A stretch of 64,000 nucleotides of DNA from Escherichia coli (GCF_001677475.2 NZ_CP015229.1), one strand, 5' to 3'; counted from the stretch's first letter, positions 3,607 through 4,223 are shown. Made by a program: numbers and translations. The notes: generated from the sequence alone by a model not told the origin.

Positions 3607-3849
3607 ATGAGCGCTATGGCAGGTATGGATATGGGCAGAATTTTACTCGATTTATCCGATGAGGTGATTAAGCGACTTGATGATCTCAAAGTGCAGCGCA
3701 ATCTTCCTCGCGCAGAGCTATTACGAGAAGCTGTAGAACAATATCTGGAAAATCAATCGAAAACGACAATATCCAGTGCTTTTGGTATCTGGCAAGGGTG
3801 TGAGGAAGATGGTGTCGAATATCAGCGTAAGCTGCGTGAGGAATGGTAA
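3607..3849 (+). CDS. yiiF: Ribbon-helix-helix protein YiiF, probable VapB-like antitoxin of the downstream PIN gene
   Basis: GGAGG SD before ATG 3607 (alternative start ATG 3631 gives 72 aa); RHH motif VIKRLDDLK...[11 protein letters not shown]; stop overlaps start of next gene. Confidence 0.75.
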
Positions 3850-4223
3850 TGGCAAAAAGAACTGCGCTTTTTGATACCAATATCCTTATCGATTTGTTCA
3901 GCGGACGAATTGAGGCAAAACAGGCTCTGGAGGCATGGCCCCTACAGAATGCGATTAGTCTGGTCACATGGATGGAGGTGCTGGTTGGCGCAAAAAAATA
4001 TGATCAAGAACATCGCACACGGATTGCAATGAGTGCGTTTAACGTTATTGGGATTTCGCAGGATATCGCGGAACGAAGCGTTGCTTTAAGGCAGGAGTAT
4101 AGAATGAAACTTCCAGATGCCATTATTCTGGCAACAGCACAGATTTATGGCTTTGAACTGGTAACGCGAAATACGAGAGATTTTGCGGGAATAGCAGGTG
4201 TCGTCACACCCTATGAGCTGTAA
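3843..4223 (+). CDS. PIN-domain ribonuclease, VapC-like toxin
   Basis: 126 aa ORF with PIN acidic residues ([32 protein letters not shown]); ATG overlaps yiiF stop (ATGGTAATGG), typical TA coupling. Confidence 0.75.

Follow-up and report, generated by a model that had tools for sequence, protein, structure and literature searches.

A probable intact VapBC toxin-antitoxin operon, yiiF-vapC, beside fdhE on the Escherichia coli chromosome, and its decay to orphan yiiF in other strains

We analysed a stretch of 64,000 nucleotides from Escherichia coli (GCF_001677475.2, NZ_CP015229.1; the whole stretch is called the window here) and found that positions 3588-4223 very probably hold an intact chromosomal type II toxin-antitoxin (TA) operon of the VapBC class. 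Judged by homology, the pair is the E. coli orthologue of the crystallised VapB-VapC complex of Klebsiella pneumoniae (PDB 7BY2), because YiiF matches chain 7BY2_A and the PIN-domain protein encoded behind it matches chain 7BY2_B. This reading draws on the domain identity, the active-site residues, the orthology, gene coupling and synteny of the pair, the distribution of its alleles, and the accelerated change of the gene where it is an orphan. The features are as follows.

3588..3609, plus strand: putative promoter/operator of the operon, a 22-mer (TGATATACTGGAGGTATATATG) proposed from its cross-genus conservation
3607..3849, plus strand: yiiF (vapB), ATG at 3607 and TAA at 3847-3849, encoding an antitoxin of 80 amino acids (aa) of the ribbon-helix-helix (RHH) type
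3838..3842, plus strand: GAGGA, the Shine-Dalgarno sequence of vapC, within the 3' end of yiiF, as read from the sequence
3849..4223, plus strand: vapC, encoding a PIN-domain toxin of 124 aa (126 aa from ATG 3843)
4225..4246, strand not assigned: CCGGG...CCCGG hairpin in the 36-nt gap between the convergent stops of vapC and fdhE
4260..5189, minus strand: fdhE, the conserved convergent neighbour and locus anchor in Enterobacteriaceae, outside the module

The open reading frame (ORF) at 3843-4223 lies in the frame next to that of yiiF and encodes 126 aa when it is counted from the first ATG. It matched the PIN family of Pfam (PF01850) over residues 9-118 with an E-value of 5.1e-19, and VapC matched 7BY2_B, named 'Ribonuclease VapC', with an E-value of 8.7e-63. 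These values put the predicted PIN identity of the product far beyond chance. The PIN acidic residues, which a preliminary description of this DNA had pointed out, were found as D11, E45, D92 and D113 of the 126-aa ORF; they correspond to D9, E43, D90 and D111 in the 124-aa numbering and align with what we take to be the acidic active-site positions of the Shigella VapC 3TND. This tetrad is retained in 93-96% of 81 family members, and the VapC of the window shows zero departures from the columns with at least 80% consensus in the 81-member alignment.

The general VapC models of NCBIfam gave scores below their curated cut-offs (NF047959, TA_toxin_VapC, 28.8 bits vs 80; TIGR00028, 21.1 vs 73.6), and the cut-offs of the tRNA(fMet)-specific models NF010285 and NF047863 were not reached (19.7 vs 143 and 28.9 vs 140). 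The VapC family name was presumably given by PGAP through a rule other than NF047959 or TIGR00028. Because the scores of the NCBIfam VapC equivalogs lie far under the cut-offs, the RNA target is not transferable from the VapC of Shigella or Salmonella, and initiator tRNA is not to be assumed. The tRNA(fMet)-specific VapC proteins (MvpT of the Shigella flexneri plasmid pINV, 3TND, and those of Salmonella LT2 and Leptospira) have the PIN fold and the acidic tetrad in common with the window protein. The Shigella-type VapC can be aligned with it over the full length, but the relationship is remote (E about 3e-3). The antitoxins of the tRNA(fMet)-specific VapCs are of another DNA-binding class, the AbrB type. 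Their modules are plasmid-borne or mobile, whereas that of the window is chromosomal and syntenic. Neither YiiF nor VapC matched any defence-system family of PADLOC-DB 2.0 at E <= 0.01.

YiiF matched PDB 2K5J, an NMR structure deposited as 'uncharacterized protein yiiF', with an E-value of 5.7e-39, and the K. pneumoniae VapB 7BY2_A, whose deposition name is 'CopG family transcriptional regulator', with an E-value of 3.6e-37; the VapB/RelB antitoxin models of NCBIfam matched it weakly. By homology, its N-terminal part would be a DNA-binding domain of the RHH/CopG type, and its C-terminal tail (the last 21 letters of the protein sequence) is the likely toxin-binding segment. The last 24 residues are near-invariant between genera in our alignment. 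Arg79 of the K. pneumoniae VapB reportedly displaces the active-site Mg2+, and Arg77 of the window YiiF (...KLREEW) is the equivalent of this residue. In the genomes that carry vapC, its upstream neighbour is annotated as a CopG/RHH protein.

The junction of yiiF and vapC (GAGGAATGGTAATGG) contains two candidate ATGs. ATG 3843 gives a 7-nt overlap with yiiF, and with ATG 3849 only the final A of the yiiF stop is shared (TAATG, 3847-3851); the two genes overlap whichever ATG serves. The GAGGA sequence stands 6 nt from ATG 3849 and 0 nt from ATG 3843, PGAP uses ATG 3849 in identical loci, and in most orthologous loci the match starts at the codon of ATG 3849, right behind the antitoxin ORF. Because of this Shine-Dalgarno spacing, the PGAP usage and the start of the match in orthologues, ATG 3849 is most likely the start, giving a predicted protein of 124 aa, rather than ATG 3843, which arises incidentally from the conserved Glu-Trp-stop codons at the end of yiiF. 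The toxin gene had been described as starting inside the last codons of yiiF; the overlap stands with either ATG, but the start is most likely at 3849 and not at 3843.

Several hallmarks of VapBC modules are present in the window, namely a PIN domain, the acidic tetrad, an abutting upstream antitoxin gene, an RHH antitoxin orthologous to a VapB known in complex, and conserved pairing. The K. pneumoniae VapBC (7BY2/7BY3; locus L016) resembles the window pair in sequence (VapC ~80% and VapB ~79% identical) and shares its gene order, its overlap and the position convergent to fdhE-fdoI, and the upstream motif in K. pneumoniae, TGATATACTTGAGGTATATATG, has one mismatch to that of the window. The two differ by ~20% sequence divergence and by the linker of YiiF, which is 2 residues shorter in the window; moreover, in E. 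coli the intact module occurs in only ~1% of complete genomes. For the K. pneumoniae complex, small molecules are reported to release free toxin, according to the statement in PMC11117207 that cites Kang et al. (J Med Chem 2020, 63:13669). In RefSeq, PGAP annotates WP_001129490.1, 'type II toxin-antitoxin system VapC family toxin', in 56/56 carrier genomes, and the vapC of the window has 100% nucleotide identity to the genes so annotated. The module is of a known kind and its toxin gene is already annotated. Our literature search gave no paper tying yiiF to an antitoxin, and nothing relevant for VapC together with fdhE.

The locus was surveyed with one genome per species, followed by tblastn of the neighbours, and the best 80 loci were kept. 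A YiiF-like RHH gene lies directly 5' of vapC in all 80 of these 80 loci, which reach Rhizobiales, Burkholderia, Leptospira, Acidobacteria and Verrucomicrobia. This pairing, the Pfam PIN match and the matches of both proteins to 7BY2 agree with the preliminary description in that yiiF and the PIN gene form a VapBC-like pair, and the presence of yiiF with a full-length vapC that has its active-site residues agrees with its view of this strain as the carrier of the complete module. The module had been recognised before, as RefSeq annotates a type II VapC family toxin here.

In ~45 species of Enterobacteriaceae, yiiF-vapC is convergent to fdhE-fdoI. The identity of VapC to that of the window is 77-85% in Citrobacter, 80% in K. 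pneumoniae, 80% in Salmonella diarizonae and about 58-61% in Enterobacter; Kluyvera, Lelliottia, Franconibacter and others also have the pair by fdhE. Representatives of Escherichia species were not among the best 80 loci. In a plasmid collection, the only matches near 80% were a 5.4-Mb (chromosome-sized) record and a 425-kb Citrobacter replicon, and this search found essentially no vapC copies on enterobacterial plasmids. Because ~45 species share the position and enterobacterial plasmids are essentially without copies, the module is an old, vertically inherited and ancestral occupant of the fdhE site in Enterobacteriaceae and not a recent arrival. A plasmid origin was considered and rejected in view of the nature of the two plasmid-collection matches. 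A recent import from another species was likewise rejected, with the nearest foreign VapC, that of Citrobacter, just 85% identical at the amino-acid level.

The 22-mer at 3588-3609 has 0-2 mismatches in the loci of Citrobacter, Klebsiella, Salmonella diarizonae, Kluyvera and Pseudocitrobacter. It holds an extended -10 element (TGnTATACT, 3588-3596), an inverted repeat of ATATAC (3590-3595) and GTATAT (3601-3606) with a spacing of N5, and the Shine-Dalgarno sequence of yiiF (GGAGG, 3597-3601), and it also spans the start codon; the form of the putative promoter/operator motif is TGATATAC-N5-GTATAT. GATAT/ATATC half-sites are 18-fold enriched near the antitoxin gene in a set of 33 distant loci, with 30.3 per kb over the 90 nt 5' of this gene and 1.6 per kb in the rest of these loci; their usual layout is GATATa-N6-8-tATATC directly 5' of the Shine-Dalgarno sequence. 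The conservation suggests that the ATATAC/GTATAT repeat may be the operator of the family, at which the RHH antitoxin would exert autorepression. The promoter/operator proposal rests on comparative conservation, because a sigma-70 consensus scan of 3050-4400 called no plus-strand promoter 5' of yiiF, a good -35 element being absent. Since a -10 element at 3588-3596 puts the transcript start at ~3603, which is 3' of GGAGG, the transcript would have almost no leader, or else the promoter lies farther 5' and the motif is only an operator or an RNA hairpin.

A terminator scan of 3050-4400 gave none for the operon. The hairpin at 4225..4246 folds with -12.3 kcal/mol and a z-score of -1.08, which is not significant, and its sequence is kept in every E. 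coli allele aligned; it may perhaps serve as a shared transcript end of vapC and fdhE.

About 100 nt 5' of yiiF, at 3494-3515, the window has a second motif, TCTGGAAA(A/G)CG(C/G)CTCGCAAAA, which is conserved in 16/16 aligned enterobacterial loci and has a copy at 3056-3077. Its reading as a sigma-54 -24/-12 element was unsupported: the motif has 3-4 mismatches to TGGCACGNNNNTTGCA, matches to the sigma-54 consensus with <=3 mismatches show no excess (62 in the window vs 85 in shuffles), and no paper joining yiiE/yiiF to RpoN was found in the literature search. The gene yiiE (3171-3389, plus strand) is a tandem paralogue of yiiF with 45% identity over 73 aa. Its upstream region (3032-3109) is duplicated too, as blastn cross-matches show, and the copy at 3056-3077 repeats 3494-3515. 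Because the orthologous loci of other genera are without yiiE, it looks like an Escherichia-specific duplicate of the antitoxin gene that lacks a toxin partner.

Within E. coli, intact vapC was found in 56 of the 5,426 complete genomes (about 1%). Four states, A to D, were distinguished in an alignment of representative alleles; the allele counts from megablast are lower bounds, approximate for B to D, and the genome L095, which gave no match, has the K-12-type allele. State A is the intact pair, as in the window. State B, seen in ST131 and others (at least about 1,055 genomes with the signature), has a spacer of 181 bp between yiiF and fdhE. In this allele, the 5' ~91 nt of vapC show 82% identity to their intact counterpart and are frameshifted, with a stop at codon 19, and ~213 nt have been lost internally together with 15 nt in the 3' part. 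State C, that of K-12, equals B with the same deletion junctions and has in addition ~150 bp inserted right behind ATGGGAAAAA. The insert is a REP/BIME element: its REP halves occur 5 times and 2 times elsewhere in the window, where 0 would be expected, and the combination of both halves recurs there twice. Further members of this family lie at 15736-15769, 24610-24643, 29624-29721, 53281-53314 and 61105-61201 of the window. The yiiF-fdhE spacer of K-12 is thus 329 bp long; RefSeq has no annotation there, and it is a vapC pseudogene bearing a BIME insertion.

State D (ATCC 11775, EC9682; at least about 650 genomes with the signature) arose by one deletion that took yiiF and nearly all of vapC, with its ends at the conserved upstream motif (3494-3515) and 59 nt ahead of the stop codon of vapC. 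The piece of 59 nt that remains matches the intact allele with 100% identity and does not have the 15-nt deletion, and because of these two facts state D is an independent loss from an intact-type haplotype. The earlier expectation that the toxin partner is strain-variable was therefore right, and the view of K-12 yiiF as an orphan antitoxin gene is supported, since the aligned K-12 interval contains no intact vapC ORF. The statement that yiiF in K-12 is followed directly by fdhE was wrong, as vapC remains and the REP/BIME element lie in between.

The YiiF of K-12 and Shigella (b3890; 2K5J) is the same gene at the same locus and likewise encodes an 80-aa RHH protein. Unlike the window YiiF, that of K-12 is an orphan, whose vapC partner is a frameshifted and deleted pseudogene with a BIME inside. 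It has been listed among the E. coli transcription factors of unknown function, with expression found mainly in a transcription-termination dataset and in temperature-adapted strains (PMC9308461), a record that fits a weakly expressed gene. Orphan antitoxins have been described as what is left of degraded TA systems, or else as anti-addiction modules (PMC7354431, section 4.2). The K-12-type yiiF fits the class 'degraded from a previously intact canonical system', which was described there for K. pneumoniae; unlike in those cases, the intact ancestor, the intermediates of decay and two independent losses are visible inside one species.

The change of the orphan protein was followed in an alignment of the window YiiF, four orphan alleles and nine other enterobacterial species, with six outgroup genera for the rates. 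The paired YiiF of the window has 0 unique amino-acid changes against any of the six outgroups; the orphan YiiFs have 10-13 unique changes, with a Tajima-type relative-rate chi-square of 10-13. In the K-12 YiiF, 10 changes fall at positions that are conserved in other genera, and the changes in orphans hit sites invariant elsewhere (e.g., D->N, R->Q, K->E, E->D). Among the orphan alleles dN/dS is about 1.1-1.4, calculated from only 2-3 synonymous differences, and between genera that keep the toxin the antitoxin has a dN/dS of 0.02-0.06. The upstream site has changed as well: all orphan E. coli alleles have TGATATTGGCGAGATATTTATG at the 22-mer, which amounts to 6 changes, and the K-12 version of the region reads TGATATTGGCGAGATATTT. 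These data support the view that the YiiF of K-12 is a decaying orphan VapB, a modestly new point that we did not find in the searchable literature.

The interval between fabY and yiiF is a variable spot. An ORF of 604-614 aa (651-2495, plus strand) lies between fabY and yiiE in the window and has a G+C content of 39% against 51.6% for the window. Searches of Pfam, NCBIfam, PADLOC and the PDB sequences gave no match for it; the named relatives that it has in a set of 5.8 billion proteins (8 clusters) are from Escherichia/Shigella only. The ORF is found in 1,061 of the 5,426 complete E. coli genomes, 042 and O157:H7 among them, and a remnant of 117 nt is left in K-12. PGAP splits it into a 'hypothetical protein, missing C-terminus' and a 304-aa 'transposase'; this looks like an annotation artefact because the frame runs through unbroken (617 aa in L090). 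The ORF contains GCKSAKDRT, a motif of the CX5R type, which we take to resemble that of the IpgD/SopB inositol phosphatases, and its AlphaFold model was unusable (pLDDT 38.6). At the same spot, E. coli SC477 (L091, 1901-2664) has a HigB-family toxin gene and an HTH gene in place of the 604-aa ORF. ST131-like strains (L006, 1-1048; L095, 588-2201) have a DUF6708 gene and a hypothetical gene just 5' of yiiF, where the window has yiiE, and in L095 these two stand between a yiiE-like CopG gene and yiiF. On the other side of the module, an Rfam search of 1-10000 found only the SECIS of fdoG (SECIS_3, 84.3 bits, 9143-9201, minus strand) at its selenocysteine codon, which is why fdoG starts at 9147 in the mechanical ORF list.

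Toxicity, its neutralisation, the operator role and an RNA target are predictions for the E. coli pair, made from the sequence and its homologues. By homology with K. pneumoniae, YiiF (VapB) would form an RHH dimer whose C-terminal tail wraps around VapC and blocks its active site. Translation of vapC would be coupled to that of yiiF through the TAATG overlap. VapB, alone or in the complex, could bind ATATAC-N5-GTATAT and so cover the extended -10 element and the ribosome-binding site, by which the operon would be repressed. Once VapB is broken down or no longer replaced, free VapC would cleave RNA in a metal-dependent manner, and growth would stop. In most E. coli strains, this ancestral module has decayed, either to an orphan yiiF with a vapC pseudogene and a degraded promoter/operator region or by deletion of both genes.

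The history of the intact copy in this strain needs to be considered separately. The yiiF-vapC genes of the window differ from those of other carriers at 1-3 of 617 nt, despite differences of 19-23 of 929 nt in fdhE and of 2-14% in the upstream regions; the patch at 3363-4234, which is 99.5-99.8% identical to distant carriers, is a local island of low divergence. The intact-type and orphan-type yiiF differ with a dS of about 0.32, far above the flanks, and the 5' remnant of vapC differs by 18% where fdhE of the same genome pair differs by about 2-3%. From these distances, both haplotype classes are old. Over the fdhE-fdo region (4260-12000) the identity of complete E. coli genomes to the window does not exceed 98.7%, and the strain is for this reason without a close relative in the complete-genome collection. 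All this would be expected if the strain had re-acquired the intact copy by recombination, from another E. coli lineage or another species, in place of a decayed allele, and we hold such an event to be possible though rather unlikely. A near-identical copy is found in no other species, the best being that of Citrobacter, which excludes a recent inter-species import; vapC remains lie at the same site in all E. coli alleles, and the identity of the ATCC 11775-type remnant to the intact allele marks the intact haplotype as native to E. coli. Our main explanation, an intact VapBC operon, agrees with exchange inside the species, which leaves the identity of the module unaffected; judging from the divergence pattern, recombination seems to have passed the intact cassette from one E. 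coli background to another.

The function of the pair might also differ from that of a toxin and its antitoxin. Stable vertical inheritance at one chromosomal site throughout a bacterial family is unusual for a purely selfish TA module and leaves room for a domesticated role. The module could then be intact by sequence and yet domesticated or attenuated, with a VapC that is no longer a growth-arresting toxin and a pair that serves some other purpose: YiiF might be a transcription factor acting on other targets, or the pair might have a part in phage defence or a role linked to the neighbouring fdhE/fdo. The position on the fdhE side, fixed in the ~45 species, the near-absence of copies from enterobacterial plasmids, and the low antitoxin dN/dS in other genera are features of a vertically inherited and selected gene rather than of a mobile addiction cassette. 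However, VapC keeps its full set of catalytic residues and each highly conserved position, the statement cited above (PMC11117207) presents its closest characterised relative as an active toxin freed by inhibitors, the repeated loss of the toxin in E. coli argues against an indispensable housekeeping role, and a PADLOC match is absent; we consider this reading improbable. That the 126-aa ORF is a chance frame or an inactivated pseudogene has practically no probability, as it is refuted by the Pfam (5e-19) and PDB (9e-63) E-values, by the intact catalytic residues, and by its full length in 56/56 carriers and in the orthologues of about 45 species. A broader view would see, instead of a simple selfish cassette, a family-wide, vertically inherited module with a selected role, convergent to fdhE throughout the history of Enterobacteriaceae, of which the rare intact allele is passed between E. 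coli lineages by homologous recombination and the YiiF of K-12 is either drifting to extinction or kept as an anti-addiction or immunity factor against incoming VapC; we give it a small chance of being right. If it were true, E. coli would be a natural experiment in the loss of such a module.

Taken as an intact VapBC operon, the pair offers little new biology in itself, as it is a textbook type II system whose K. pneumoniae orthologue has a crystal structure. There is a gain in annotation, in that the 'y-gene' yiiF of K-12 can be described as the orphan VapB antitoxin gene of a decayed vapC. After the loss of the toxin, the antitoxin and its putative operator change measurably faster. The alleles of E. 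coli provide a within-species series from the intact module through frameshift and deletion and the BIME-interrupted form to complete loss, and this series could serve as a model for the death of TA modules.
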